Source: Candidatus Aenigmatarchaeota archaeon
GTDB lineage: Archaea > Aenigmatarchaeota > Aenigmatarchaeia > GW2011-AR5
Direction: 5' to 3'
NCBI GenBank assembly: GCA_016198685.1
Contig: JACQID010000004.1
Coordinates: 224,001 to 288,000, forward strand
Length of the DNA: 64,000 bases
In this document: positions 8,375-50,900 of the stretch, piece after piece
How positions within the stretch are numbered: position 1 is the stretch's first letter
Layout of the letters: each line of letters begins with the position of its first letter
Notes under the pieces: model-generated
The model's database searches: none
The model's input: the letters and a program-made list of their open reading frames with translations, nothing else
Told to the model about the DNA's origin: nothing
Translations under genes and position numbers: made by a program

Positions 8375-11005
8375 TTATCTTATTTTTTCTAAGCCTAAAA
8401 AGTAATCCACGATCGCCTTCTTGTTTGCATGGAGCCATTTGGCAGAGCGTTTGAGACGTTCAAATGCCCTGTCCGTTACTGCCTTGTATTTTACGGGATG
8501 CGATGCAAAGAAATCCCGGAGATGCTGTTCTTGTGTCACATGGGCATTGATGAAATATTCTATTATGTTAAGAAACACGGGGCCGGATTTGCTGTATTTT
8601 TCTATAGAAGCCCAATTTTTCTCCATCCATGCAATAAGTATTGTTCTTGAAGACGGATTCGCGGCAAGGGATGCAAATACCGCAGGCAAGTCCTGAATTC
8701 GTGCCTTTCCAGAAACTGAAAAATCCAACAATTTATTCAAGAGTTTCGGATCTGTAAACTGGCCCATCGCAAGCAGTGCGTTTGATCTTTCTTCCGGATT
8801 CCGGGTTTCTTGGCATATATGCATCATGGCATTATGCCTCTGTTCGCCGCCGGCTAGAGCCGCTGCATACATGGCAGGATAGCGAAGGTCCGGGGGAATT
8901 GACGAAATACTGGCCGCATTCCTGTCGAACATTTCAACTGCTTTCTTCATTGTGCCTTCATCTTTGACAAAAATCAGGTATCGTATTGCAAGTTCGCGCA
9001 TTAAAGCATCTTCTTGCGGCTCGTTTCTTCGTGCGTTCCATGTAAGTTTCTCCAAATTTCTTCTGTAAGGCTCCATATAGTGCTTGGAGAATCCGTGCCA
9101 TGCCTTTTTCCATTCAGGTTCTTCTGAAAAGACCGAATGTATGCTGCGCATGTTGGCAGATATGCTTCCGAGTATCAGGTATGTATCTTCATTTCCGTAT
9201 GATCCCAAGATTTCAAGGTATTCCTTCAACGGCATCATGCCGTTAAGCGAGAGCCTGAAAATATCATCTTGTAAACCCCAGCGGTCTAGCGGATCTAATT
9301 GCTTGTTTTGGACAAGCATCATCATCTTGGCAGAGTTTTCCTTGTCATAGCTGACCCTGTAAAATCCTGTTTGGCCGTAGTTGGCTTTGAACCATCCTGC
9401 GCTGTCGAGATTCATTTCTACGGTTTTGTTGCTTATCATATGCCTTACTGGAGCTTTCAGCCCCTCTGCCATGACTATAAGCGGTATCTTCCATGTCGTT
9501 GCGCCGTCCTTGCCGCCGAATACAAAACGTTTCTGCATGACGTGGAGCTTGCCTCTTTTCATCGATGCCTCAACCATCGGGTAGCCTGCCTGCTTTATCC
9601 AGCTTATTACGATATCCTTGGCCGGTTTCTCCGAGACTGCCGCAAGCGAGTCCCAGAGATCCTCTGAAGATGCATTGCCGTATTTATGGGCCTCAAGATA
9701 TCTGCTGACCCCTATTCTGAATGCATCATGCCCCAAATAATCCTCTATCATCCTCAGTATGTTGCCGCCTTTGGCATAACTTATTGCATCAAAAAGCTGT
9801 TCGATTTCGTGAACATTCTTTACATTCGCTTCTATAGGATGAGTTGTCTTGAGAGAATCATCGTCCAGTGCCCTCACAGTTTCAAGCCTGAGAAAATCTT
9901 CCCACATGTTCCATTCGGGGAACATATGATCGACTGCCTTGTATGCCATGAAAGTGGCAAAGCTCTCGTTAAGCCACAGATCATTCCACCATTTCATGGT
10001 CACAAGATCTCCTGACCACTGATGCCAGAGCTCGTGCGCAACTATCATGGCTATGAATTTCTTGGTTGATGTCGAAGTTTTCTTTTCATCGTACAGAAGG
10101 TATATTTCCCTGAATGTGACAGCGCCCCAATTCTCCATTGCACCGCTGGAGAAATCCGGCAATGCTATCATGTCGAGTTTCGGAAGAGGATACGGAATGC
10201 TGGAATATTTCTCAAAGTATAAAAGAGCTTTTTTGGCAACATCAAGCGCAAACTTAGCTCCACCTTTCTTGTTGCCTACTGTCGCAACACGTATTAGGGT
10301 GTTATCAGCCCTGGTTTCTTCGAAGTCAAACTCCCCGATACCAAGATAAAGAAGGTATGTGGACATTACCGGCGTTTTTTGGAACAAAATTATCTTCTTT
10401 TCGTTTTCAAGCGTCTCCTTTTTTGCAGGCATATTGGATATACCCGTGAACTTTTTTCCCATCTTCAGCGTCACATCAAAACTTGCCTTATAATTTGGCT
10501 CGTCAAAGCAGGGGAACGCGCGTCTCGCATAAGGCGCCTCAAAATGCGTTGTCGCAGCGTATCTTAATGATCCATCCGGCATCACTACCTTGGTTCTGTA
10601 GAATCCGACCAGGCTATCGTTTAATTTTCCCCTGAATTCCAGCAGGATTTCGGCTTTGCCTCTTATTTTTTCAGGCAATTTAAGAATCAATATCTGGTTT
10701 TCCGGCTGCATTTCAACGCGTGCAGGAAGTATTTTGTTGTTCACTAATATGGCGGCTGTTGTTATTTTCAGATCCAGCGCATTAAGAATTATGGCTTTTG
10801 CGGGAGCAGATATGTCTATTGCTATTCTCTCCTTTCCGGAAAAGGAGAAATTTTCCATATCAACGTCAAAGATCATATCGTAATTGGACGGTTGAACAGT
10901 ATCCGGAAGCCTGTGCATTATTTTAGGCATTCTATGATATTGTTCTTTTGAGCATAAGAATGCAGGAATTACGAGACTCCTGTGCCAGTCTTCGCAATCA
11001 TGCAA
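8375..11005 (-). CDS. pepN: M1 aminopeptidase with ERAP1-like C-terminal domain (real start probably 10930)
   Basis: GAMENWG, HELWH..(18)..E, YAKGG. Confidence 0.94.
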   Translation of the reverse strand: MHDCEDWHRSLVIPAFLCSKEQYHRMPKIMHRLPDTVQPSNYDMIFDVDMENFSFSGKERIAIDISAPAKAIILNALDLKITTAAILVNNKILPARVEMQPENQILILKLPEKIRGKAEILLEFRGKLNDSLVGFYRTKVVMPDGSLRYAATTHFEAPYARRAFPCFDEPNYKASFDVTLKMGKKFTGISNMPAKKETLENEKKIILFQKTPVMSTYLLYLGIGEFDFEETRADNTLIRVATVGNKKGGAKFALDVAKKALLYFEKYSSIPYPLPKLDMIALPDFSSGAMENWGAVTFREIYLLYDEKKTSTSTKKFIAMIVAHELWHQWSGDLVTMKWWNDLWLNESFATFMAYKAVDHMFPEWNMWEDFLRLETVRALDDDSLKTTHPIEANVKNVHEIEQLFDAISYAKGGNILRMIEDYLGHDAFRIGVSRYLEAHKYGNASSEDLWDSLAAVSEKPAKDIVISWIKQAGYPMVEASMKRGKLHVMQKRFVFGGKDGATTWKIPLIVMAEGLKAPVRHMISNKTVEMNLDSAGWFKANYGQTGFYRVSYDKENSAKMMMLVQNKQLDPLDRWGLQDDIFRLSLNGMMPLKEYLEILGSYGNEDTYLILGSISANMRSIHSVFSEEPEWKKAWHGFSKHYMEPYRRNLEKLTWNARRNEPQEDALMRELAIRYLIFVKDEGTMKKAVEMFDRNAASISSIPPDLRYPAMYAAALAGGEQRHNAMMHICQETRNPEERSNALLAMGQFTDPKLLNKLLDFSVSGKARIQDLPAVFASLAANPSSRTILIAWMEKNWASIEKYSKSGPVFLNIIEYFINAHVTQEQHLRDFFASHPVKYKAVTDRAFERLKRSAKWLHANKKAIVDYFLGLEKIR

Positions 11006-11035
11006 TATTAGAGGTTTAACGCCATTATAATTACC

Positions 11036-11671
11036 ATGAAGATAGGAATTCTAGGTTCCGGCGTTGTTGGCCAAACACTGGGAATCGGGCTTATGGGCCA
11101 AGGGCATGAAGTTACTATAGGAACTAGAGACTCTGGAAAACTGAACGAATGGCTTTTGAAAGCCGGCAGTAAAGCTTCTGTAGGTTCATTTTACGATGCG
11201 GCAAAGTTCGGGGAAGTTATATTCATAGCTACAGTATGGACAGGCACCGAAAATGCCATTAATCTTGCAGGGAAAGAAAACTTTGCAGGTAAGATAGTCG
11301 TAGACGTCACTAATCCTCTGGATTTTTCAAAAGGCACTCCTGCCCCTGCAGTCTCTTATCCTCTTTCGGCATCCGAACAAATACAGAACTGGCTTCCGGC
11401 CGCAAAGGTTGTTAAAGCATTCAACATAGTGCCTGCGCATGTTCAGGTAACCCCGAAATCCCTGGGCGATGCCGATCTTTTCATTGCAGGAAACCACAAA
11501 GACGCCAAGGAATTTGTGCGTGAAACCGCAAAACGCTGGGGCTGGTCAGATGTCATAGACATGGGCGACATCAAAGCTGCATATTGGGTAGAGATGCTCG
11601 GCTTGGCAGTAATAAATTACGGCTTCAAGCACAACGATTGGAATTTCGCACTGAAGCTCTTGAGGAAATGA
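11036..11671 (+). CDS. F420-dependent NADP oxidoreductase family protein
   Basis: KIGILGSGVVG, IGTRD, VVDVTNP, VVKAFN and GD motifs. Confidence 0.85.
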   Translation: MKIGILGSGVVGQTLGIGLMGQGHEVTIGTRDSGKLNEWLLKAGSKASVGSFYDAAKFGEVIFIATVWTGTENAINLAGKENFAGKIVVDVTNPLDFSKGTPAPAVSYPLSASEQIQNWLPAAKVVKAFNIVPAHVQVTPKSLGDADLFIAGNHKDAKEFVRETAKRWGWSDVIDMGDIKAAYWVEMLGLAVINYGFKHNDWNFALKLLRK

Positions 11672-11681
11672 TATGATTCTA

Positions 11682-14249
11682 TTATCTTTCCGGAATTAAA
11701 TGAAGAAGATTCAGGCGCCTAAATTCTTGATATAACTCATTATCACTTTTTCTCAACTCGCGTCTGGTTGCATTAGTGTGGTTCATAAGAAGCCGCAAAA
11801 GTAAATCTTCCACTACAGCCTTGGGCTCATAAAGTGTCATATTCCTTGGCATTGTTATGGTGATATATTCATTTCCATCGATAGTTGTTGCAGGTAGGCT
11901 CTCTAGAATCGTTTTCATATTTGTTCTTAAGTTAGTAAAAAGATAACGGGACACAGTATCCTGCAGGTCATCTAATCCGCTTTCGTGCTGGAAAGCGAAT
12001 TGCGTGCAGATCTCATGATTTGTTTGGCCATCTATGGATGCATCGGGCTTTCTTTTGCCCCTTTTTGATTCCATCACATTTCTATCTACGTTAAATTCGA
12101 AGTATTCTTTAGGTATTTCAAGGACCGGGTCGGTATATTTTCTAGAGGTGATTACGTAGACAGAGAATTTGCTGTCCTTAGGCTCTGTAGCCATTACCTT
12201 TCCTGACAGTTCCGGTATCACTTCAAATCCCGCAAGTTTCATTCCGGCGTATAACTTGTCTAAATCGAGGTCAAGGTAAGCCGGAAGCGCTTGTATATTG
12301 AATGCACGTTTTCTTGATACGCGATTCTGCTCCTTTATCGACATCTCCCTTTCCCTTATTATGCGTCCGGTCATGTCCGTTCTTTCCAGTTCCGTATGGT
12401 TCAAACCCAGAGAGCACAAAACAAGATCGAACTCGTCATTTGTAAAGGGAAGTGCATGCAAATAGCCCTTGTGATATTCATTATCAGGATGGGCGCCCAT
12501 GATTTTTGCCTTTTCAAAATTGGCAATATTTATGTCAAGACTTACCGTAGGTATTCCCATCGCCATTGAGAGGATGGCGGGTCCGGAGGGGGCATCAAGT
12601 ATTCTTGATATCTTCTCGCCGCTTCCTTGCAAGCCTTCAATTATTCTCTTGTATACTTGTGCAGTTTTTCCAGAGTAAGACATAGGCCAATTATGCATAT
12701 AATAATCTGCAAAATCCGAGGCTGTCCTGCCGTCATTAGCATAGATCAACCTTTCGTTGGATTCAGCGCTTCTACCGGCCATCACAGTCAATATCCTTCT
12801 TACGTGCTGGGCGGGCGTATAAATCACGTCAAGTATAGGTCGTTTTGTATGAACGGGCGAATCTGACACCAGTTTGCCGTCCTCAAGCTTTACCCTTCCG
12901 CCCCTCATGGCAATATCTATAATTCTCTTCTTATCTGACACAAGATGATTTATGCCTGCATCGATGGAGCCTCTGGGATGCATAGGGTAATTGACAACGA
13001 GTTGCGTGATGCGTACCGGCTTTTCCTGACCTCTTCTGTCTATCCTTTTTGTCATTTGATATAGCGGGCCATAACTATATGGAAGATCGAGAAGGAATTC
13101 CTGCGATGCTGCAACCAGTGGAAGCGACTCGCCCATGGTATGCGGATTCGATATCAAGACACAATGCTCCGGGGAATTTTCAAAAAGATGCCTCACAATC
13201 TCGCGTTCGCTTTCTTTGCCCATCCGACCAGTCGGTACGCTGCCGTCTATCCTTAGCGCCTTGTGCTTCTTGTAACGTTCTTCGAGTTTCCGTGTGACAC
13301 CGTTCACAAATCTTGAAGAAAATACAACGCATTTTTCCCCATTTGCTATCGCGTTGCCTACAAGGCGGTCAAGCTCAAGGTATTTCGATGATTCTATATC
13401 GTTTAATTTTTCGCGTAGTACCGGATCTGTTATCATGTCTGGCTCTACAAGAGACGGGTCCAGCGAAGCCTTCCTAAGTTGGTCAAGCTTTTCGGTAGGT
13501 GATATGTCTTCATAGGCAAGAACTGCAGCATAGACTGCTGCATGATCTGGATTCATTTCCACAAAGCAGGTGCTTATCTCAGGTAATTCGACATCACCTC
13601 TCCTCAGCATTTTCCTGTTCAGGACGCTTCCGAGAACAAGAGGATTTTTTTGATATGCTCTTGCCACATGCCATGGCGTTGGGTAATTTTCAGGCTCAAG
13701 CATGCTTATGAGGTTGAACATATCGGACATGCCGTCCGGCACAGGAGTTGCGGTAAGCAGTGCAAGATATTTCGCCCTGTCCGTTAACCTTCTCATATTA
13801 TACCGGTGCGTCTTGGGGTCTCCTGTATGATGCTCCTCATCAACAATAACATAGTCGGGCTTGAAGTTTTCAAGCGCCTGAGTTACTTTATCCCGCGTAG
13901 TCTTGACGCCAAAAACGTCATGATTGACTATGATGGCATCCGAGTCCAAAACGACCCTATCAAGAGATCGTGTGCCATAGTCATTCAGAAGCGTGGTCCT
14001 TAGCCGAGGATAATTGGTGCCCAGTTGTGACTTCCAGTATTCAAGGCCAGAATTTGGCACTACAGCTAGAGTCTTAGGCATACGGCCCGTGCCTATCTCA
14101 ATGAGCCTGATAGCGCCTATGGCTTGCTGTGTCTTCCCAAAGCCGCCGCCGTCTGCTATGAGTATTCTGCCTTCATCATATATCTTGAAAGAGCCGTACT
14201 CCTGCTGTATATTGGGCCTTATGACCGAGACTTCCCTGTAAGTTGTCAT
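11682..14249 (-). CDS. SNF2-type helicase/ATPase fused to a class I SAM-methyltransferase-like domain
   Basis: ILIADGGGFGKT, VVPNS..W, VIVDEEHH, LLTATP, KCVVFS, QMTKRIDRRGQ; then RILDAPSGP, SLDIN, HALPF.NDEFDLVLCSLGL. Confidence 0.85.
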   Translation of the reverse strand: MTTYREVSVIRPNIQQEYGSFKIYDEGRILIADGGGFGKTQQAIGAIRLIEIGTGRMPKTLAVVPNSGLEYWKSQLGTNYPRLRTTLLNDYGTRSLDRVVLDSDAIIVNHDVFGVKTTRDKVTQALENFKPDYVIVDEEHHTGDPKTHRYNMRRLTDRAKYLALLTATPVPDGMSDMFNLISMLEPENYPTPWHVARAYQKNPLVLGSVLNRKMLRRGDVELPEISTCFVEMNPDHAAVYAAVLAYEDISPTEKLDQLRKASLDPSLVEPDMITDPVLREKLNDIESSKYLELDRLVGNAIANGEKCVVFSSRFVNGVTRKLEERYKKHKALRIDGSVPTGRMGKESEREIVRHLFENSPEHCVLISNPHTMGESLPLVAASQEFLLDLPYSYGPLYQMTKRIDRRGQEKPVRITQLVVNYPMHPRGSIDAGINHLVSDKKRIIDIAMRGGRVKLEDGKLVSDSPVHTKRPILDVIYTPAQHVRRILTVMAGRSAESNERLIYANDGRTASDFADYYMHNWPMSYSGKTAQVYKRIIEGLQGSGEKISRILDAPSGPAILSMAMGIPTVSLDINIANFEKAKIMGAHPDNEYHKGYLHALPFTNDEFDLVLCSLGLNHTELERTDMTGRIIREREMSIKEQNRVSRKRAFNIQALPAYLDLDLDKLYAGMKLAGFEVIPELSGKVMATEPKDSKFSVYVITSRKYTDPVLEIPKEYFEFNVDRNVMESKRGKRKPDASIDGQTNHEICTQFAFQHESGLDDLQDTVSRYLFTNLRTNMKTILESLPATTIDGNEYITITMPRNMTLYEPKAVVEDLLLRLLMNHTNATRRELRKSDNELYQEFRRLNLLHLIPER

Positions 14250-15943
14250 GCCATAGCCTCCTTTTCAGGCATTAATTTCCTGGCTTTCCTTGTGAGCGTT
14301 AAGAATCTCTGGAATTCGTCATAAAGGGTTCCGTGAAGCCATTTCAAGGGTTCGTTACCTTCTGCGATAGCTTTTTCCTTTATCAAGCCGAGCAGGGTTT
14401 CTTCATCCTCATGCGAGGGATATTCATCATTTCGGAGCAGAGACATGTAATAATCCCTTCCTATCTTGAGGAAGCCTTCGCGGAGCATCTTATCGTTGTT
14501 TATTATTGGCATAGGTATGCTCCCTATAACGTCGCCGCCAAAGCCGGACAGGTCCGGTCTTTTGAATCTGCCTATGTAAGGACCCAATGAGGGCAGATAT
14601 TCATATGCCACCTCTTCGTCGACTATGCCAGGATAATAAAGGGCCAGAATCCTCGCGGCAAGCATGTCTATCATGCCACCTGCTGTGCTTCCATGGTAGA
14701 ATAATGACACAACCCTTTGCGCATCTTCATGCGTCTCGACAAACTCCCTGAAGGATGGGGCGTCGTTAATTTTAACGACGGAATTTATACCTCTGCCATT
14801 ATCAAAATTAAAGTTATGCGCTTCTGCTGGTGTCATCGGTGTTATTCCAGCTCTTAATAACCAACGTCTTGCACGAGTATTCTTAATTCCTAAGTATTTT
14901 CCAAGATAATTCGCACTTCTGTAACCAGGATTTTGCTCAACAAGCTTCGCCAAATCCCCATCTGCAATCATTTTGACACCGGTTCTTATTTCATGAGACA
15001 ATAACAAAGCTTCTTGTTGTGTCATCGGTGTTATTCCAGCTCTTAATAACATGCCTTTGGCGCCTGTAGGACTAATTCCCAAATATTTTGCAAGCATACT
15101 TTCACTCGCATATTCAGGGTTTTCTTTAACAATATCTACAAGTTCCTGATCAGTGAGCATTTTTACATCGGGCGAGAAGATAATATGTCTAGATTCAACT
15201 CTAGACATTGGTTCTATCCCAGCTTTTCTCAAATATCTTGCCGCTGCTCCATTACCAATATTTAAGTATGTACTTAGTATGAGAGCACTTCTATACTTAG
15301 GTTCCCGCTCTACAAGTGCTACTAACTCCTGACTTGTTAAAATTTTTACATTAGAGCCATTATATTTGACTAATTTACCTTCAGACAGATTCATAGGTTG
15401 TATGTTTGCAGCGTTCAAATAGTTTCTTGCAGTGCTAGGGCTTACACCTAAATAGCCAGCTAGAATAGTGGGGCTTCTCATGGCAGGATCGTCCTCAATG
15501 AGTTCTTTTAACGCCTCCTCGCTTGGCTTATTCTTATAATGTCCTCCAAGATGCTGTACCAACTTGGCCTCGCTGATAGTCATTGTTTTTATGCCAGCAA
15601 GCAATAGATATCTTGTTGCGGCAGCAGGACTTACACCCAAATGTTTAGATAAAATACTAGGACTTCTCATGGCAGGATCGTCCTCAATGAGTTCTTTTAA
15701 CGCCTCCTCGCTTGGCTTATTCTTATAAGGTTGTTTAAAATGTTGAACCAATTTTCCTTCAGTAATATTCATTGGCTCTATGCCTGCAGATAACAAATAT
15801 TCTCTAGCAGCACTTCTACTCATATTCAAATATGTTGCAAGTGAAGTGCTGCTTCTATACTCAGGATGGTTTTGTACCAGCATTCGCAACGCTTCATTAC
15901 TAATTCTGGTTTTATAAGATGGCATACTTTCATCCTTAACCAA
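14246..15943 (-). CDS. Protein with six tandem HTH-like repeats + unknown ~175-aa C-terminal domain (start may be ATG 15925)
   Basis: Repeats at aa 14-76, 77-139, 140-201, 202-262, 263-325, 326-388; ATGA overlap with the next gene, with AGGAGG upstream of that ATG. Confidence 0.85.
   Translation of the reverse strand: MVKDESMPSYKTRISNEALRMLVQNHPEYRSSTSLATYLNMSRSAAREYLLSAGIEPMNITEGKLVQHFKQPYKNKPSEEALKELIEDDPAMRSPSILSKHLGVSPAAATRYLLLAGIKTMTISEAKLVQHLGGHYKNKPSEEALKELIEDDPAMRSPTILAGYLGVSPSTARNYLNAANIQPMNLSEGKLVKYNGSNVKILTSQELVALVEREPKYRSALILSTYLNIGNGAAARYLRKAGIEPMSRVESRHIIFSPDVKMLTDQELVDIVKENPEYASESMLAKYLGISPTGAKGMLLRAGITPMTQQEALLLSHEIRTGVKMIADGDLAKLVEQNPGYRSANYLGKYLGIKNTRARRWLLRAGITPMTPAEAHNFNFDNGRGINSVVKINDAPSFREFVETHEDAQRVVSLFYHGSTAGGMIDMLAARILALYYPGIVDEEVAYEYLPSLGPYIGRFKRPDLSGFGGDVIGSIPMPIINNDKMLREGFLKIGRDYYMSLLRNDEYPSHEDEETLLGLIKEKAIAEGNEPLKWLHGTLYDEFQRFLTLTRKARKLMPEKEAMA
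14780..15904 (-). repeat. Intragenic tandem repeat with a 183-189-bp period
   Basis: Identical 66-bp blocks at 15474-15539 and 15663-15728; identical 31-bp blocks starting at 14831 and 15020; both pairs are 189 bp apart. Confidence 0.92.
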
Positions 15944-16121
15944 TTAGGAAGGAAAGTATAAATACTTTACTATTTATAAGTAATAAATATTTAAGTTTCT
16001 AAATATACTAACGAATGGATGTATGAGTTCGTGACTTTCTATATATTGGGAGATACAAATATAGAAAGTATATGTTCTATTTACTATATTAATCACAATA
16101 AAAATGATATCAAAATTTTAA

Positions 16122-16194
16122 AGCCGCCTGAGGGGATCGAACCCCCGACCTGCAGTTTACAAAACTGCCGCTCTACCAGCTGAGCTAAGGCGGC
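16122..16194 (-). tRNA. tRNA-Thr (UGU), no encoded CCA
   Basis: GCCGCCT acceptor, GCAGT-TT TGT AA-ACTGC anticodon arm, GGTTCGATCC T arm. Confidence 0.97.
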
Positions 16195-16226
16195 GCTTTT
16201 AGAAATAAGGAAAGAACTCTTTTAAT

Positions 16227-16646
16227 TCATATGTCCAGAAGCTTCAGGCCGGTTTCTGCGTCATATTTTCTCTCGACCTCGAATGGCAATACTTTCAGAA
16301 ATACTTCGAGCGTGCCTGCGGCAACCATTTCCATGACATGGCCGCCAAAGGCATGAAATTTCTCATCTGCTATCGTGGCATGGGCGTGAATTATCGGCCT
16401 GCCTTCGTGCATCGAAGAATTGCCTATGAGACCGGTAACTTCGAATTCGCCTTTGAACGTCTTGCGATGGTACTGCTTGTCTTTAAGGGAATAGAACGCA
16501 AGCTCCGCTTCCGTCACCGCACCTATTGCATCGAACTTGGAAAATTTTATCTTATTCTCGCCCAAAAAGTTAAGCAGAGTTTCCGCCAGCCTGTCGCCTT
16601 TCTCAAGTTTTATGAGATAAGAGTCCGATTTCTTTATGCACTTCAT
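16227..16646 (-). CDS. PPC/DUF296 domain protein
   Basis: LEKGD.L, AIGAV, FEVTGLIGN, HAHATIAD..GGH; ATGA overlap with mscS. Confidence 0.9.
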   Translation of the reverse strand: MKCIKKSDSYLIKLEKGDRLAETLLNFLGENKIKFSKFDAIGAVTEAELAFYSLKDKQYHRKTFKGEFEVTGLIGNSSMHEGRPIIHAHATIADEKFHAFGGHVMEMVAAGTLEVFLKVLPFEVERKYDAETGLKLLDI

Positions 16647-19274: not shown

Positions 19275-21098
19275 TTGCAAGGTAATGTGATGGCTGACAA
19301 GACGCTTAACGATTTTTCATGGAAGGTGGCAGGCGAGGCTGGTCACGGTATACTCAACGCCGGTCTCTCGATGTTTGCGAAGACCTGCCTGCGTTCCGGC
19401 CTTTACGTTTATGCGACTGCCGAATATCCTTCTCTTATACGAGGAGGGCACAACAATCTTGATGTCCGTGTGTCGGACAAACCTATAGAATCACAGAACA
19501 AGCATATAGATATGCTGGTTGCCCTTGACAAGGCATCTGTAGAGAAGCACGCAGGCAAGCTTTCTCAGGGCGGTGCAGTCATCTATGATGGAGAGAAAAT
19601 AACCCTAGACAGGAGCGGGATACGGGACGACGTAAAGCTCTATTCTGTTCCTCTTTCCTTGATTGCAGAGTCTTCCGGCGGTCAGATCATGCGCAATACC
19701 GTTGCCATAGGAGCTGCGATGGCACTGCTCAATTTCGATCTTTCGGTTCTTGAAGGCGTCTTGACGGAGTCTTTCAGGAAAAAAGGTGACGACATCATAC
19801 AAGGCAACATAAAAGCTGCCCGTGACGGCCATGCTTATGTCAAAAAGAACTTTGCCGATGATTTTGGCCACATGCTCAAGGGCCATGGCAAGCACAACAA
19901 GATGTTCCTTTCCGGTCATGATGCTCTTGCAGCAGGGGCAATAAAGGCCGGATGCAAGTTCTATGCAGCTTACCCAATGACTCCGGCATCGTCGCTCCTT
20001 GGCAGCATGGCAGCAAGTGAAGGCAGGTATAACCTTGTAGTCAAGCAAACTGAAGATGAAATAGCCGCAATAAACATGGCCATAGGCGCAGGATATGCAG
20101 GCGTGCGCAGCATGGTAGGCACATCCGGAGGCGGTTTCTCATTGATGGTTGAAGGATTCGGTCTTGCTGCAATGACAGAAACGCCGCTTGTAATTGTGGA
20201 ATCCCAAAGACCCGGCCCTGCAACAGGCATGGCAACGCATACAGGTCAGGCAGACTTAAGATTCATGCTTCATGCATCTACCGACGAATTTGAAAGAGTG
20301 ATCATAGCTCCGGGAGATGTGCAACAATGTTTCTATGAGACGATAAAGGCTTTCAATCTTGCCGACAAATACCAGATGCCAATCGTGATAATGACTGACA
20401 AGTATCTTGGCGAGAGTTATTTCACTGCCGATGAATTTGAGACCAAAGACGTGAAGATAGATCGTGGTAAGATGCTTACTGATTCTGAACTTGCTGGCAT
20501 GACGGAATACAGAAGATACAAAGTCACTGAAGATGCCGTTGCGCCCCGTTCCATACCAGGACAGAAGAACGGCTGCTTTGTTGCGACGAGCTACGAGCAC
20601 GATGAAGCAGGGTTTGAACGCGAAGAAGAGGAAATCAGAGTTACCATGCATAACAAGCGCTTCAGAAAATTTGCCTTGGCATCCAAGGAACTTGTCAACC
20701 CTGGACATTTGGGAGATGCAAATGCTGATATCATGATAATCGGCTGGGGCTCGACAAAGGGTCCTATACTGGAGGCCATGAAACTGCTGAAGGCAAAAGG
20801 CATCAAAGTTGCCTATCAGCAGGTCCTTTATCTTAGCCCATTTCCTGCATCTCTTATAAAAGAAACCATAGCCAAAGCAAAGCGCGTAGTCATAATTGAA
20901 AACAACAAGATGTCCCAACTTAATAGTGTGATAAGAGAGCACTGCCTTGTGAGCGTTGATAACAAGATTTTGCGTTACGATGGCAGACCTTTCTCGCCGC
21001 AGGACATAGAGGATGGTGTGCTGAAGATAGTGAGGAGCACTGCGCCACGCGTGTTGGAATATGCAACTTTCGGCATTGTTAATGAGGTGAAAGCATGA
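19275..21098 (+). CDS. korA: 2-oxoacid:ferredoxin oxidoreductase alpha subunit
   Basis: GEAGHG, YPSLIRGGHN, YPMTPAS, EDEIAA, TSGGGFSL, QRPGPATG. Confidence 0.95.
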   Translation: MQGNVMADKTLNDFSWKVAGEAGHGILNAGLSMFAKTCLRSGLYVYATAEYPSLIRGGHNNLDVRVSDKPIESQNKHIDMLVALDKASVEKHAGKLSQGGAVIYDGEKITLDRSGIRDDVKLYSVPLSLIAESSGGQIMRNTVAIGAAMALLNFDLSVLEGVLTESFRKKGDDIIQGNIKAARDGHAYVKKNFADDFGHMLKGHGKHNKMFLSGHDALAAGAIKAGCKFYAAYPMTPASSLLGSMAASEGRYNLVVKQTEDEIAAINMAIGAGYAGVRSMVGTSGGGFSLMVEGFGLAAMTETPLVIVESQRPGPATGMATHTGQADLRFMLHASTDEFERVIIAPGDVQQCFYETIKAFNLADKYQMPIVIMTDKYLGESYFTADEFETKDVKIDRGKMLTDSELAGMTEYRRYKVTEDAVAPRSIPGQKNGCFVATSYEHDEAGFEREEEEIRVTMHNKRFRKFALASKELVNPGHLGDANADIMIIGWGSTKGPILEAMKLLKAKGIKVAYQQVLYLSPFPASLIKETIAKAKRVVIIENNKMSQLNSVIREHCLVSVDNKILRYDGRPFSPQDIEDGVLKIVRSTAPRVLEYATFGIVNEVKA

Positions 21099-23050
21099 AG
21101 ACTACATTGAAGGAACTAACAACAAAGGAAATGCCTTCATGGTGTCCGGCATGCGTGATGCCTGGAACGCTTATTCATACCAATCCTTCGGCAAAAAAGA
21201 TAGAAGAAATAAAGGAAGGGGACAGGGTGCTCGGCAAGGACGGAAAATACCACGATGTCACCGAAATAATGATTCACATGCACAAAGGCGATGTATTCAG
21301 GATAACCGCCAAGTGCTTCGGGGAGACAGTAATAACAGGGGAGCATCCGGTTCTCATTTCAAAAAGAAAAGCCAAGCCGTACAATAATTCCGTTTTTGAT
21401 CTTGAATGGGCGGAAGCAAAGAACGTACGGGAAGGAGACTATCTCCCGTATCCGATACTCAAAGAGGTCAAGGACACTGGGGAAATAGAGCTTCCGGCAA
21501 AAAGAAAAGAGATGGATAGGAAACATATTGAGATTCCAAAAACCGTAAATATAGGAGCGGACTTTCTGAGACTGGCGGGTTATTATATCGCCGAAGGTTA
21601 CTGCCATAGCAGAGAGGCGTGCCTCACTTTTGGCAGCGCCGAGATGAAATATGCAGAAGATGTAAAGGATATAGTTCAACGATTGTTCGCATTGAAGGCG
21701 GCGATAAAGGCAAAAGGAAGCAAAATAAACGTTGAAATACGTTCTTCGCTCTTGGCAGAGTCCTTCGCGGAATGGTTCGGTCGGGGTGCGCAGAACAAGA
21801 AGATACCGCATTTTATGATGCTTCTACCAGCAGAGAAACAAAAAGAACTCATCAAAGGTATGTGGAGGGGTGACGGGTGGCTGGACAGAAAAGTCAATCG
21901 GGCAAGCTACAAGACCATATCGCCGATTCTAAAGGAACAGATTAAGCAACTCTTGTTAAGGCAGGGAATAGTGCCTACAGTGAGCATAAACAAAGCATAT
22001 GATATTCACAAGGAGTCATATTCAATAGAGGTAGTAAGCTTTGATGACATGGCCAAGTTATGCAACGCATTGGAAATGGTCTTTGAAGCGCGCCGTTCCG
22101 AGTCTCACAAGCCTCCAATACAGAGGGATGAGAATTACGCTTATTTGCCTATAAGACGGATAACAAAGGAGTTTTACGATGGGCCTGTCCATAACATGGA
22201 AGTGGCTGAAGTAAATTCCTACGTAAGCGGCAGTGCAATACTTCACAACTGCGGAGATTTTAACATACTTTTTGCTATAAAGAACGCCCTAACAGAGCTT
22301 GATACCGAGCCTGAGAATATAGTAATTGTGTCAGGGATCGGGTGTGGTTCCAAAACCCCTCACTTCATCAAGACTTACGGATTTGAAGGTCTTCACGGCA
22401 GGGCCGCGCCCGTGGCCACGGGAATCAAATTAGCTAACAAAGGTTTGAAAGTCATAGTTGTCGGCGGAGACGGCGACGGTTATGGAATAGGTGCCGGCCA
22501 TTTACTCCATACGATGAGAAGGAATCTTGACATAACTTATCTTGTTCAGAATAATGCCGTTTACGGCCTTACGAAAGGCCAGTACTCGCCTACGAGCAAG
22601 AAGGGATTCAGGTCGCCTTCAACGCCATCGGGCAGCCTGGAAAATGAAGTTAATCCCATGTTATTTGGTCTTGCAATGGGCGCAACTTACGTTGCAAGAG
22701 GCTATGCTTATGAAGTCAAGCATTTGCAAAAACTGATAGTCGATGGCGTTCGTCATAAAGGTTTCTCCATCATAGACATATTCCAGCCCTGCTCAACATA
22801 TAACAAGATCCAGACTATAGCATGGTACAAGCAGAACCTTGTCAAGATGGAAGACATAGGCCATGATGCAAATGATTTCAATGAAGCCCTGAAAAAAGCG
22901 GCAATGACTGAAAAGCTGCCGATTGGATTGTTCTACAAGACCGAAAAACCCACGTATGAGGATGGCATACCGCAAGTAAGTTCACTGCCTTTAGTGAAGC
23001 ATGATATAAACAATATTGATATAAAACCTTTGCTGGGCAAATTCAAGTGA
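21095..23050 (+). CDS. korB: 2-oxoacid:ferredoxin oxidoreductase beta subunit precursor containing an intein
   Basis: Exteins rejoin as WCPA-CGDF; SGIGC, HGR and GGDGDG..IG..H TPP motifs, NN.VYGLTKGQ.SPT. Confidence 0.95.
   Translation: MKTTLKELTTKEMPSWCPACVMPGTLIHTNPSAKKIEEIKEGDRVLGKDGKYHDVTEIMIHMHKGDVFRITAKCFGETVITGEHPVLISKRKAKPYNNSVFDLEWAEAKNVREGDYLPYPILKEVKDTGEIELPAKRKEMDRKHIEIPKTVNIGADFLRLAGYYIAEGYCHSREACLTFGSAEMKYAEDVKDIVQRLFALKAAIKAKGSKINVEIRSSLLAESFAEWFGRGAQNKKIPHFMMLLPAEKQKELIKGMWRGDGWLDRKVNRASYKTISPILKEQIKQLLLRQGIVPTVSINKAYDIHKESYSIEVVSFDDMAKLCNALEMVFEARRSESHKPPIQRDENYAYLPIRRITKEFYDGPVHNMEVAEVNSYVSGSAILHNCGDFNILFAIKNALTELDTEPENIVIVSGIGCGSKTPHFIKTYGFEGLHGRAAPVATGIKLANKGLKVIVVGGDGDGYGIGAGHLLHTMRRNLDITYLVQNNAVYGLTKGQYSPTSKKGFRSPSTPSGSLENEVNPMLFGLAMGATYVARGYAYEVKHLQKLIVDGVRHKGFSIIDIFQPCSTYNKIQTIAWYKQNLVKMEDIGHDANDFNEALKKAAMTEKLPIGLFYKTEKPTYEDGIPQVSSLPLVKHDINNIDIKPLLGKFK
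21152..22249 (+). mobile_element. 366-aa intein with LAGLIDADG homing endonuclease
   Basis: Starts CVMPGT, block B ITGEHPV, ends SAILHN followed by Cys+1; LAGYYIAEG and IKGMWRGDG motifs. Confidence 0.95.
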
Positions 23051-46418: not shown

Positions 46419-47954
46419 TTATTTTTTATTTTTTCTGCCGGACGGCGTGAAACTGTAGCCGGATTTTCTATTCCGAATGTCTATGGCATATTCATTCTTT
46501 CTCCCCTGGCCAAGCTGTTGTTTGACCTCTTTGAGATGATCATGGCCATGATAATACATCCATCCAAGTATCAATGCTATGACAAATACTGAGAGCGCTA
46601 TGTACCAGCCATAGTCATTGACTATATCTTTTACGGCATTCACTATATTCTCATTATCTTGAATCACGTCATCTACTATCACAGCTTTTTTGACAGCCGA
46701 TACTGCAAATAATGAAAACCCTGGAGTTGTTGCAATATAATATACATGTTCAGCTGTGCCGCCGGATTCAGATGTCGCAAGCTCAGACCAGCCGGATATG
46801 TATCTCATGAGACCTATATCAGATGTCGCAAATCCGTTGTCTGCTATCCATTTTTTTGCAACTTGGAAGCTTATTTCGGCTGCGGTTATGTCCGAATCTG
46901 AGAAATTGGAAAGTACAATCTCCATGTATTGATGTATTTTTCCTTCTGGCGCTTCCTTATCGGTGCTTTCCAGATTCTTGATTTCTATACTGATATTTGC
47001 TAAAGCTTTCGATGCCGTGAATGCAATTCTTCTCACTCCGGTTTCTGCCGGATTGTCTATATCCACGCCTGCGCTTTCGCCTGCAGCAACAGAAGGAATC
47101 TTTATCACTGAAATACCTTCTGTTGTGCTTATGGTCGTGCCTTCAGGCGCTGGTGCCTTGGATAGAGCGCTTCCTCCGCCCCCTCCACCGCCGCCACTGC
47201 CGCTTCCGCTGCCTGAATCACTGCTTCCTCCGCTTGCAGAGGGTATAGTTGTGCTTCCGGATTCTGTATCAGTGCCTCCCGGGCTCCCGGATACGCTAAG
47301 GACAAAATTGCAAGTTCCTGATGAGCTCCCTGCAGTCACGCTCCAGCTTTCCGATGTGGTTGCCGAATCTCCAATAGTACCTATAGTCTTCGTGGCGCTG
47401 GATATCGTGCACTTTCCTGAAGTTTCTTCAAGTGTTGCCGTAACAGAACTGCTACTGCCTGCAGTCTCAGTGCCGCCATTTTGTATCGTAGCTGAAACTG
47501 TGAATGTCTGGCTTGCCGTGGCGGAAGATGGCGTGCTTAGAGAAACTACGCTCAAATCTGCAGCAGAACTTACAGTAACTTGCGTGCAGTCAGCAGTGCA
47601 GGTTCCCCCCATATCCACGCATACGTCCTCCGAACCGGCCGTATTAGGAGTTATTGTGAAATCCAGGCTTTTTGATTCGCCGGAGCTGATGCTTGAAATC
47701 ACTTGCGAAATTGTATCCCCTGTAAACCAGCTTCCAAGAAGCGAGGCCGTGATGCTGGACTGGGATTGCGATTGCTGGTTTGTTACGCTGACTGTGAGCG
47801 TGCCTGCCGAACCCTTGGTCATTGAAGTCGTCGTAAGGGAACATGTATATTGCGATGATGAACATGCATTACTGCAGGCCGCATAAGATGCCTGGAGCGC
47901 AAATGCCATCATTATTACTGCAATTACCAATGTCTTAGTTTTCATTGTGATCAC
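46419..47954 (-). CDS. Surface protein: CARDB-like domains, Gly/Ser linker, PGF-pre-PGF domain, C-terminal TM
   Basis: Signal peptide; GSGSGGGGGGGGS linker; F.V.K.W...TTPGFSLFAV; YIALSVFVIALILGW. Confidence 0.85.
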   Translation of the reverse strand: MITMKTKTLVIAVIMMAFALQASYAACSNACSSSQYTCSLTTTSMTKGSAGTLTVSVTNQQSQSQSSITASLLGSWFTGDTISQVISSISSGESKSLDFTITPNTAGSEDVCVDMGGTCTADCTQVTVSSAADLSVVSLSTPSSATASQTFTVSATIQNGGTETAGSSSSVTATLEETSGKCTISSATKTIGTIGDSATTSESWSVTAGSSSGTCNFVLSVSGSPGGTDTESGSTTIPSASGGSSDSGSGSGSGGGGGGGGSALSKAPAPEGTTISTTEGISVIKIPSVAAGESAGVDIDNPAETGVRRIAFTASKALANISIEIKNLESTDKEAPEGKIHQYMEIVLSNFSDSDITAAEISFQVAKKWIADNGFATSDIGLMRYISGWSELATSESGGTAEHVYYIATTPGFSLFAVSAVKKAVIVDDVIQDNENIVNAVKDIVNDYGWYIALSVFVIALILGWMYYHGHDHLKEVKQQLGQGRKNEYAIDIRNRKSGYSFTPSGRKNKK

Positions 47955-50900
47955 TTCGACTCAAAGTTATATGTGGTGGTCATGACGCTCATTGTTGATG
48001 TTTTTGGCGTTATGGTTATCGTTCCTGTCCAGTTGCCCGCCTGGGTGACGTTGAATGTCCAATTGAATTGGCGCGTGACGCCTATATTCATTATCATATT
48101 GCCATGCGTAAGGTTAGTCAGATTATTTGATATTGCAGAAGAATTGGTGCTGTGTACAGGCTTGCTTATTGCAATATCGGCATTGACCTGGCTCGATGAA
48201 GGATTATTTATGGAAACCGATATGTTGAAGTTCTCCCTGAAGGTTGCGTTTCCCGGGAGCAACGCAGATACTGTGTTGTCGGTCACATAGCTTTGGTTAG
48301 ATTTCGTTGCATTATAAACGGATTTTCCTTCTATCCTCAGGTTCTTCTGCGCAACTATGACTTCCCTGCTTCCCACGGTTGTAGAATTGCCGTAAGTAGC
48401 CTGATATTCCACAGATAGCCTGCCGATAGGCCATGTGAAGCTTCCTGCAGGCGTTATTGAAACATTGGCGGCCCCGCCTGCATCGGTGATGTTTGATGCG
48501 CCTGTCCAGTTTGAATCTGATGTATTCACGTTGGCACCTGTTGCAGTATTCCATATCTTTCGCACCGAAACATTGGCATTGGCAAGCACCATGCTCCTGT
48601 TGTAGTTAAGGCTTACGTTTATTGTTGAGGTTATCGCCGATGTCGGCGTTATGTCGGTGATTCCTGTTATCGCTCCCCATACTCCTGGAAATTCAGCACT
48701 TATGCTTGTCATGAATGTCGTGGCTACGCCATCTTTCAAGGCGGAAATTTCAACATCATAATACGCCCATCCCCATGGTGGGGTAGGCCATGTGTTGTTC
48801 AATCCCGGAGGCGTTATGTTTATTGTCTCAGCGTTGCTTTGGGTAGTCCTGTTTATCGCCACAACAAAGCTATGCTGGACACATGCGTTGTCACAACTCC
48901 AATATCTGAACGTGGCGTTGGATACCGTGACTCCAGAGGACCCACTTATGTTCAATTTCATGCTTTCATTTATGTAATAACTGTACCTGAATTTCTCTCC
49001 TGCGAATTCAAAGGGATAGAGTATTTTTCCGCTTAGTGCGAATGATGAAAGCCTAAATGTGGCATATCCTATATGAGCTGTTGATGTTACATTTTGGCTG
49101 TCGTTTGCCGTGATCTCGGGATAATAATAGCCTTCTGAGAGCGCAGTGGTATTCAGGCTAAGCCTCTTCTGGCTGGACGTGTAAGTATATATCAAGCCCG
49201 ATGTATCCACGCTTGTGCAAGTGCCGCTCTGGCAATGCTTCATCGTGGATATCTTGACATCGTTAAGCGTTACAGGCGTTCCTGAGGAACTGTCAGCTAC
49301 AATATCGAATGTCACATTTTCCCCTTTCTGGTATTCAAATCTTGAAGCGAATGCATACAATCGGAACGCTATGACCTCGAACCATGCTTCGGAAAATACT
49401 ACGTTGCCATTGGCATCCGATATTTTCAATTTTGCCCTATATGTACCAGACGGCAAACCGGATCCGAGGGGCGTTATATTTATATTAAGATCTCCTACGG
49501 TTGCAGGATTGCCGCTTACTGCCTTCACGGTATAGTCAGTTCCATTAACAAGAGTGGCTCCTGTCAAGGTATTCTGAAGACTCAGAATATCTATGTAAAC
49601 CTGCCCGTTGTAATATGACGATGTACCTGGACTGCCAACATGAACTTTCAGGCTCATGTTGTTTTTCGGATGATTGCTCCATGCGTCAGTCCATGACCAT
49701 ACATCAAACAGCCTGACATCGAACCATGTGCTTACTTCTACCTTTCCTCCTGTAGCCGAACCATTCTGCAATGTTCGCGTAAGATTAACAACAGCCTGAT
49801 AACTGCCCTCATCCCATCCGCCTGACCTTGAGAGATTCATTATAAGACGTGTCGGCATTGTGATATTGGATGTCTTGAGTGCAATGCCGGATACCTCGCT
49901 TCGCGACCATGTTGCCCTGTCGTATTTATACACGGTAATCTCGGGTGAGCCGGAAGTATAAGAAGTGTTAAGCGTTACCTGCTGCCCGGAAAGTGTTCCT
50001 TGGGCATATATTGTAATGTTGTCCGAAGACCCATAAGTCCATTTTTCTGTCCAAGCACTGGGAGTAAAGTCCCTTACATCAAACCATACATAAGTTCGCT
50101 TGACGTCGCTGCTCTCGTTTATCCTTATGGCGATCTGGTAAAACCCGTTCGGCAAACTCTGGCTCAGGCTCACGTTTGCCGCTGCGCTATACTTGTTGTT
50201 TGAAGTCGTGGCATCTGACCACAACGAACTTGAAACCGGTGCTCCTGTCATTGAATTTATCACCGATTCAATATTGGTTTCGGTACTGCCTGTATATGCG
50301 CGTCCGCTTGAAGGATCTGTTATCGTGCAACTTATGTTAACTGAAACTCCTGACTGTATGTCTCCCCATGAAACCCTGTTGCAGCTCGCAAAGAAGGTTT
50401 CTATCTTGAATCCCCATTCGGCTTTTTCCGTGCCAAGGGAATTATTGAATTCTGCGGAGACAAAATAATCTCCCGAATCCCATGTCCCGCCTGCCGCCCC
50501 ATCGTCGAGTGGTTTCAAGACGAAAGTGCCAACGCCGGGTATTAGAATATTGCCCGTGCCCTTTATTGTCCCGTCTTTGCTTGTGACATTGTAATCTACT
50601 TTTTCCTGAAGCACGGTCTCCCCTGATGAAAAGTCAAACTTGGCTACTTTTACGGATTTTAGCGTCACGTTGTAATATGATGTCTGCGAATTATCTCCTA
50701 CTGAAACGCCAGACGAGCCTCCTAATCCTGAAGTTTCTCCAAGATCCTGTATGTATCCAATAGACCAATTCGAAACATTTCCTTCGGAGTTTCCAGGCCC
50801 TCTCATTCCTAACTTGTAGTATTTGCCTGTCGTGCTATTGACGCAGAAATATCTTGTGTGCGTTGCATTGTAAGAGCCTGCTAATGTCATGTTCGTCGTG

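Follow-up and report, generated by a model that had tools for sequence, protein, structure and literature searches.

An array of six predicted helix-turn-helix units as a candidate exchangeable DNA-targeting subunit of an archaeal SNF2-methyltransferase

Why should an archaeal protein carry six tandem helix-turn-helix (HTH) units, each with a different predicted recognition helix, and be encoded next to an SNF2 ATPase joined to a methyltransferase? The question is raised by a gene on the minus strand of a 64,000-nucleotide (nt) stretch of DNA, hereafter the window, of contig JACQID010000004.1 (positions 224,001 to 288,000; assembly GCA_016198685.1) from Candidatus Aenigmatarchaeota archaeon. 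The answer favoured here, with moderate confidence and on the basis of sequence comparison, is that the protein, which consists of the array and a C-terminal domain (CTD), is an exchangeable DNA-engaging targeting subunit of a two- or three-part archaeal SNF2-methyltransferase (SNF2-MTase) machine. The six basic three-helix units would lie along the DNA like beads on a string, joined by linkers of ~17 amino acids (aa) that each carry a short helix, and the acidic, conserved CTD would couple them to the SNF2 ATPase and class I methyltransferase encoded by the overlapping downstream gene. A methylpurine DNA glycosylase of the AAG family belongs to the same operon in most relatives. Lineages would keep the adaptor and the enzyme and replace the array by another allele or another type of module, and units would be gained or lost through recombination between repeats, in the manner of the swaps of target-recognition domains (TRDs) of HsdS in Type I restriction. 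DNA binding, docking through the CTD, and the roles of the recruited methyltransferase and glycosylase are what we infer from the features described below.

The array-CTD gene occupies 14246..15943 on the minus strand and can be read as 565 aa from a TTG at 15943. The ATG at 15925, giving 559 aa, is the probable start, because a purine-rich stretch precedes it and the homologues begin at the matching point, with M-P/A-x-Y-K immediately ahead of the first unit. The protein is laid out as units of 59, 63, 63, 62, 61, and 63 aa (residues 1-371), followed by a 19-aa spacer and the CTD of 175 aa. All on the minus strand, unit 1 lies at 15767..15925 (residues 7-59; helix 3, SRSAAREYLL), unit 2 at 15578..15766 (residues 60-122; SPAAATRYLL), unit 3 at 15389..15577 (residues 123-185; SPSTARNYLN), unit 4 at 15203..15388 (residues 186-247; GNGAAARYLR), unit 5 at 15020..15202 (residues 248-308; SPTGAKGMLL), and unit 6 at 14831..15019 (residues 309-371; KNTRARRWLL). 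The initial annotation, made from the DNA alone, had placed six such units at 14780-15904, and this is correct: the interval corresponds to residues 14-388, the six helix-3 strings that it listed are all present and all different from one another, and all unit pairs match. In BLASTP, 15 of the 15 pairs align with E values of 1e-28 to 4e-9 and 36-69% identity, and in a MAFFT alignment the pairs share 30-68% amino-acid identity and 44-75% nucleotide identity.

At the DNA level, two exact tracts, both spaced 189 nt, link neighbouring units as had been reported. Units 2 and 3 share a tract of 66 nt (15663..15728 = 15474..15539, minus strand) that encodes scaffold, namely helix 1, the PAMRSP turn, and the last part of the linker, and not helix 3. 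The tract of 31 nt (15020..15050 = 14831..14861, minus strand) is shared by units 5 and 6 and encodes LLRAGITPMT, the end of helix 3 and of the unit, which is scaffold as well. The remaining unit pairs share at most 11 nt. A perfect run of 66 nt within a unit pair that is otherwise ~62% identical cannot be due to chance. The start of helix 3 is diverged within both of these unit pairs despite the exact tracts, and such a combination of identical scaffold and diverged helix 3 start is the pattern that would be expected of short gene-conversion tracts within an older duplication. Tandem Repeats Finder reports no repeat in the DNA of the array gene, because the units are too diverged at the DNA level; a DNA repeat search detects the 189-nt pair at 75% identity.

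The predicted fold of the units is a three-helix HTH. Summed over the units of the whole protein, three Pfam families are matched, i.e. HTH_11 (42.9 bits, cut-off 25; 4e-11), HTH_10 (35.4 bits, cut-off 23.1; 1e-8), and HTH_17 (30.1 bits, cut-off 27; 6e-7). An AlphaFold2 (AF2) model of units 2-4, built on an alignment of five natural three-unit segments, has a mean predicted local distance difference test score (pLDDT) of 78. In it every unit follows one plan, in which a short helix in the linker is succeeded by helix 1, a helix of four residues at the P-E-Y-R motif, and then helices 2 and 3 with a three-residue turn, G-(V/I)-S, between them. The arrangement that defines a tri-helical HTH (helix 2, a tight turn of 3-4 residues, and helix 3) is found in the modelled units. 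The three-unit model has no match in the PDB at E ≤ 0.001 by Foldseek, the top rows being bipartite HTH proteins at E 0.2-3. The best structural matches of single units are the paired HTH of Mos1 and SETMAR, the double homeodomain of DUX4, and the like, with 18-26% identity over ~40 residues, and ESCRT-II and PCI domains are also among the matches. The claim that the units are HTH-like, for which structure prediction and Foldseek per unit had been proposed as the check, is thus upheld at the level of prediction by the Pfam HTH families, the AF2 model, and the superposition of unit 3 on solved HTH domains. Several units at once (residues 63-357) align with PHROG 14131, 'DNA binding protein', at E 4e-14. 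This is the sole catalogued family that spans several units, and it lacks the CTD; the match shows that prokaryotic viruses, too, have tandem HTH arrays of this style. The array is basic (isoelectric point 9.5) and the CTD acidic (5.2).

The CTD (14249..14773, minus strand; residues 391-565) is all-alpha with ~9 helices and contains the motifs DAPSFREF and YLPSLGPY(I/L)G. Its model is all-helical, with a pLDDT of 82 and a predicted template modelling score (pTM) of 0.76. No Pfam family, TniQ included, and no regulator family matches it, no solved protein in the PDB is found by sequence, and the fold searches give no informative match. Its invariant positions, including the Y-L-P-S-L-G-P-Y motif, do not look like a catalytic site. 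The window CTD is 87-89% identical to those of P0004 and P0005 and 38-49% to those of more distant members, and the window gene has what defines the family, namely both CTD motifs and an adjoining or fused SNF2-Methyltransf_11 gene. We propose that the CTD is an adaptor that couples the array to the SNF2-MTase by physical docking. A complex prediction for the CTD (163 aa) and the SNF2-MTase (837 aa) returned a score of 0.00, which is no answer and counts neither for nor against binding.

The SNF2-MTase gene (11682..14249, minus strand; 855 aa), the start codon of which is overlapped by the stop of the array-CTD gene (ATGA, 14246-14249), encodes an SNF2 ATPase (residues 30-470), a class I S-adenosylmethionine (SAM) methyltransferase (~540-720), and a conserved C-terminal region of ~135 aa. 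An SNF2-MTase of this type adjoins the array-CTD gene in 17 of 17 loci, with a stop/start overlap in most, and the gene order differs among them (array-enzyme, enzyme-array, or enzyme with two arrays). The adjacency extends to a different family within the same order, where the homologue is 30-37% identical. Moreover, in P0036 (L035:51-4196), which comes from an NCBI metagenome-assembled genome named Candidatus Aenigmarchaeota, the CTD and the SNF2-MTase are joined in a single frame of 1381 aa to an array of 5-6 HNH_repeat-like units. A frame error is possible in this metagenome assembly, yet the junction encodes an N-terminal extension as in other long homologues. The array-CTD protein is linked to the SNF2-MTase by the natural fusion and by an adjacency that persists in all the loci although their gene order is shuffled. 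A MazE/PemK toxin-antitoxin pair lies downstream of the fusion gene.

The window SNF2-MTase is 84-85% identical to those of L002 and P0031, and 42-51% to P0032-P0035. Its SNF2 part has only a generic likeness to DrmD, ZorD, DpdE, and RapA; the PADLOC matches are likewise generic, and the NCBIfam scores of the protein (P0002) are 20-41 bits against cut-offs of 500-1200. The proteins of solved structure nearest to the methyltransferase are uncharacterised class I SAM methyltransferases (E 1e-5). The last ~30 codons of the gene (11682-11780; ..TRRELRKSDNELYQEFRRLNLLHLIP) resemble the 49-aa repeat unit found in one array of genome G320, a resemblance seen in six of seven family members with E values of 7e-9 to 2e-3 in a search of seven sequences, and the SNF2-MTase may itself end in one DNA-binding module.

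In front of the CTD, at least six kinds of tandem helical modules are found among the family members, in arrays of 3-10 units. They are the 62-aa unit of the window protein, a ~70-aa unit similar to HTH_Tnp_1 and HTH_28, a ~55-aa unit similar to Sigma70_r4, a ~55-60-aa unit similar to HNH_repeat, a 76-aa unit, and a 49-aa unit, and in some proteins the kinds are mixed. Two loci (L031, G320:C19, 496-8375; and L036, 1298-8436) consist of a glycosylase gene, an SNF2-MTase gene, and two array-CTD genes in this order; in the G320 pair the CTDs are 90% identical and the arrays are unrelated (seven units of 76 aa versus seven of 49 aa). Similarly, P0036 and P0023 differ in array type although their CTDs share 94% identity. 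None of the window units has an orthologue among those of P0004, with nucleotide identities of 48-67%, despite an identity of 92% between the two CTDs. The number of units among close alleles is 6, 5, or 4, and variation in repeat number, which the initial annotation had proposed as a check, is thus present among the homologues. Between close alleles with five and four units, one whole unit has been lost in a deletion that ends in the repeated linker. In another array gene (L008:8871-10001), encoding three HNH_repeat-like units and the CTD, a single in-frame TAG stands between units 2 and 3, so that either the gene is split or decaying or the assembly is wrong here.

The history of the array/CTD junction may be followed by comparison with L034, a 205-kb metagenome contig that is syntenic with the window, carrying genes for the array-CTD protein, the SNF2-MTase, an F420-type oxidoreductase, and an M1 peptidase in the same order. 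Synonymous and nonsynonymous divergence (dS and dN) and the proportion of synonymous differences (pS) were estimated by the Nei-Gojobori method. Between the window and L034, the flanking genes have dS values of 1.6-1.9 (pS 0.67-0.69; dN 0.12-0.18), and the array has a dS of 2.3 (pS 0.72; dN 0.63). In contrast, dS is 0.51 in the CTD (pS 0.37; dN 0.055) and 0.44-0.62 in the SNF2 half, residues 1-470 (pS 0.33-0.42; dN 0.05-0.07). Over the SNF2 and methyltransferase domains pS is 0.33-0.47, and dN is 0.05-0.16 across the CTD and the SNF2-MTase gene and 0.05-0.09 within the CTD, SNF2, and methyltransferase domains. The contrast is opposite between L034 and L002, where the array has a dS of only 0.13 (pS 0.12; dN 0.036) and the CTD a dS of 0.41 (pS 0.32; dN 0.046). 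These opposite contrasts, together with the non-orthologous units beside near-identical CTDs, indicate that the history of the array is discordant with that of the block formed by the CTD and the enzyme, and that a breakpoint lies at the junction. Between L034 and L002 helix 3 is nearly unchanged and the dN/dS of the array is ~0.28, so that within the allele the array is under purifying selection, as a functional array would be. Positive selection is not detected: dN/dS is below 1 everywhere, lying at 0.22-0.44 for the arrays and for pairs of units, and dS between alleles is saturated. The arrays behave like discrete alleles, which are conserved while they are kept and replaced as blocks.

The loose analogy to TALE and zinc-finger arrays that had been drawn for the window protein is not supported, if it is taken to mean a fixed scaffold with few specificity residues. 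The units are only 30-68% identical, and over 19 units the entropy is high at all exposed positions of helices 1, 2, and 3 and of the linker; fixed residues are confined to the P-E-Y-R-S and A-G-I-x-P motifs and the hydrophobic core. Also against the analogy are the dN/dS within the allele and the generation of diversity by whole-array replacement and by gain and loss of units. Near-identical CTDs with unrelated arrays, and the jump in synonymous divergence at the junction, suggest that specificity changes by array swapping and unit gain or loss rather than through a TALE-like code. Silent donor units were not found; a hidden Markov model of the 19 units matches only the array gene among all six-frame open reading frames (ORFs) of the genome.

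Whether the arrays read a particular sequence is a separate matter. It is plausible that they read a long composite site in a sequence-specific manner, in view of the six differing helix-3 sequences, the purifying selection on alleles, the occurrence of two arrays per enzyme, and the HsdS-like replacement. The main rival explanation, which we consider unlikely, is that the array is a non-specific DNA anchor, the weak HTH units of which add avidity and hold or wrap any DNA for the SNF2-MTase. Such an anchor would fit the basic charge of the array, the presence of at least six unrelated module types at the same position, and the spread of variability over all exposed positions instead of a few specificity positions. 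However, a non-specific anchor should evolve like the rest of its operon, whereas the dN of the array far exceeds those of the CTD, the SNF2-MTase gene, and the flanking genes in the comparison with L034. Nor does it fit the maintenance of two different arrays beside one enzyme, the differences among all six helix-3 sequences within one protein, or the discordant histories at the junction, which point to selection on which array is carried.

Several observations weigh against the proposal of an exchangeable targeting subunit. If six unrelated module types can be used, perhaps any DNA-binding array suffices, which would favour non-specific tethering. The geometry between units is not predicted with confidence in the AF2 model of units 2-4 (pTM 0.48; linker pLDDT 51-73). 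The methyltransferase part matches only Methyltransf_11/25/31/8 in Pfam and not N6_Mtase, N6_N4_Mtase, or DNA_methylase, so that it is of a small-molecule, protein, or RNA type and not of a recognised DNA methyltransferase type such as those of restriction-modification (N6A, N4C, or C5). Finally, the assembled 94% of the genome to which the window belongs contains no gene for the glycosylase that accompanies the cassette elsewhere.

That glycosylase, of the AAG/MPG family of methylpurine DNA glycosylases, is encoded 1-16 nt from the cassette in nine loci, in any gene order. The glycosylases that were read keep the motif I-T-E-T-G-A-Y, which we take as the counterpart of the region around the catalytic Glu in human AAG. 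The cassette of G320 is followed by a gene for a TIM-barrel protein similar to xylose isomerase and Endo IV (AP_endonuc_2). That the methyltransferase recurs in partnership with a methylpurine glycosylase leads us to speculate about a write-and-excise activity on DNA. Under this extension of the favoured explanation, which we regard as a long shot, the system would carry out protein-guided DNA modification and base excision: the arrays would bring the ATP-driven methyltransferase to chosen DNA, and an unusual methylpurine would be written there and then removed by the AAG-family glycosylase. The Endo IV-like protein of the one locus could process the abasic site, and the outcome would be either that invading DNA is destroyed or that a reversible mark is written and erased.

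Upstream of the array gene lies an AT-rich spacer (15944..16121, minus strand) that contains TATA-like runs and a perfect inverted repeat of 11 nt (16034-16044 / 16059-16069; ACTTTCTATAT / ATATAGAAAGT on the minus strand; 14-nt loop). The repeat could be an operator or the terminator of the tRNA transcript. It may be counted in favour of an autonomous transcription regulator that is merely co-transcribed with the SNF2-MTase, the CTD being an oligomerisation or ligand domain, and HTH proteins that head operons are commonly regulators. We judge this improbable. The natural fusion with the SNF2-MTase, the constancy of the adjacency in every locus while the gene order changes, the two array genes per enzyme in some loci, and the failure of the CTD to match a regulator family all speak against it.

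Next to the spacer is a tRNA-Thr(UGU) gene (16122..16194, minus strand). The other neighbours of the cassette in the window are the peptidase and oxidoreductase genes. Another explanation, to which we give very little credence, is that the cassette belongs to a mobile or selfish element and that the array picks an insertion or conversion site as the modules of homing endonucleases do. Consistent with it, some arrays faintly match homing-endonuclease-associated modules (NUMOD1, HNH_repeat), the flank of tRNA-Thr is variable within the genus (in one same-genus genome a different gene stands in place of the cassette), and toxin-antitoxin pairs occur nearby in two loci; toxin-antitoxin pairs or a NERD gene are near the cassette in three loci. 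But no nuclease, integrase, or transposase is found in or next to any cassette, and no direct repeat of the tRNA-Thr end, i.e. no att-type signature of integration, is present across 11000-16400. Also, there is one cassette copy per genome with no further copies of the units, the same chromosomal neighbourhood is occupied in a diverged relative, and no relative is found among IMG/VR viral contigs by CTD patterns or, with tblastn of the array protein, among 50,697 phage records. Least probable of all the explanations is that the HTH-like units bind RNA or a protein partner, such as a chromatin protein that is then methylated; it would suit the protein/RNA/small-molecule class of the methyltransferase fold and the occasional binding of protein by winged-helix and HTH folds (ESCRT-II and PCI being among the structural matches), but the array is basic, its strongest sequence matches are DNA-binding HTH families, and it is partnered by a member of a family of double-stranded DNA translocases (SNF2) and, in nine of the loci, by a DNA glycosylase.

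Some further features were observed in and around these loci. A same-genus tRNA-Thr (L021, G004:C95, 1026-1123) aligns to the window tRNA in two pieces 25 nt apart, the gap possibly being an intron, and an ORF of 165 aa downstream of it recurs upstream of the cassette of L034. Elsewhere in the window, 21095-23050 encodes a 2-oxoacid:ferredoxin oxidoreductase beta subunit with an intein that has a LAGLIDADG domain (Pfam Intein_splicing and LAGLIDADG_3), and 47951-54205 on the minus strand is an ORF of 2084 aa.

Among known systems, Type I restriction offers a close parallel in logic to the targeting subunit proposed here. In it, one subunit, HsdS, gives DNA recognition to a methyltransferase and an ATP-driven translocase, its conserved regions dock on the enzyme, recombination exchanges its recognition modules, and an enzyme can work with any of several specificity genes. 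HsdS has no sequence or fold relation to the array-CTD protein, however, and carries two TRDs instead of 3-10 tandem HTH-type modules; in the present cassettes, moreover, the methyltransferase is not of the N6-adenine type, there is no nuclease, and a methylpurine glycosylase is a frequent third gene. Strings of ~50-60-aa three-helix HTH units on linkers, with helix 3 in the major groove, are known in Myb R1R2R3 and in Pipsqueak. These proteins, and Mos1, SETMAR, and DUX4, have two to four units compared with the six found here, and they lack this adaptor and an SNF2-MTase. The archaeal CRISPR-repeat binders Cbp1 and Cbp2 recognise a DNA repeat of ~25-30 bp with two or three tandem HTH units on flexible linkers; they lack both an adaptor domain and a partner enzyme, and their match (PDB 2lvs, rank 47, E 3.2) is not significant.

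The TnsD/TniQ selectors of Tn7-like elements join a conserved core to long, diverse multi-HTH regions, which recognise a long attachment site and bring in an ATPase (PMC10293859). The array-CTD protein differs from TnsD in that its partner is an SNF2-MTase, not TnsC or a transposase, and its units are true tandem repeats. Membership in TniQ/TnsD was rejected, as the CTD has no TniQ core (no Pfam match) and no PDB sequence match. SNF2 proteins are found together with methyltransferases in eukaryotes as well, as in fungal Dnmt5, an SNF2-DNMT fusion (bioRxiv 10.1101/2020.01.05.895227), and in CDCA7-HELLS-DNMT, where a separate DNA-binding factor, CDCA7, directs an SNF2 remodeller that works with a methyltransferase (PMC10538959). 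Those enzymes act on C5 of cytosine, whereas the domain found here is a generic class I Methyltransf_11/25 domain in a prokaryotic context without an evident link to nucleosomes. DrmD of DISARM, ZorD of Zorya, DpdE of Dpd, and BrxHII of BREX belong to the same ATPase superfamily and share with the cassette a patchy accessory distribution and an association with DNA-modification genes. Identity with these SNF2 defence systems was rejected on the scores (DrmD, 24 bits versus 610; DpdE, 30 versus 500) and the absence of their companion genes.

The family is small and sharply defined, with a host range that is probably of DPANN-type archaea. The CTD is known from only ~20 loci, mainly in small archaeal genomes. 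A search of 5.8 billion clusters yielded three close array-CTD proteins and five SNF2-MTase homologues, and one of 1.84 billion representatives yielded 25 matches. The CTD profile is found in five of the 371 genomes of the same phylum, all within one class, and in one other species genome in GTDB; two family members carry the NCBI name 'Candidatus Aenigmarchaeota archaeon'. In four genomes of the same genus (70-89% complete) the cassette was not found. Two metagenomic proteins, P0012 (701 aa) and P0013 (358 aa), consist only of 11 and 6 tandem HTH_23-like units of ~59 aa, respectively, without the CTD, which shows that free-standing arrays of this style occur elsewhere in metagenomes.

Neither the tandem HTH array nor the linking of an adaptor to variable DNA-binding modules is a new idea (Myb, Pipsqueak, Cbp1, TnsD, HsdS). 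The cassette, the six-unit architecture, and the CTD are not described in the literature searched, Pfam, PADLOC, or NCBIfam, and what is new relative to these sources is the six-unit architecture, the adaptor domain, the breadth of array swapping, and the three-gene cassette. There is a real chance that the cassette could prove to be a new system once its chemistry is established. Modular readers of long DNA sites are rare and, as zinc fingers and TALEs illustrate, technologically useful, and here one adaptor domain appears to accept at least six kinds of tandem modules and to hand them to an SNF2 motor-methyltransferase. If the arrays are sequence-specific, they would form a natural set of exchangeable DNA-targeting arrays, and the cassette would be a candidate for a new system, of defence or of an epigenetic kind, in small archaea that are probably of DPANN type. 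If the write-and-excise reading is also true, it would represent a new class of programmable prokaryotic DNA-targeting machinery that is retargeted by array swapping.

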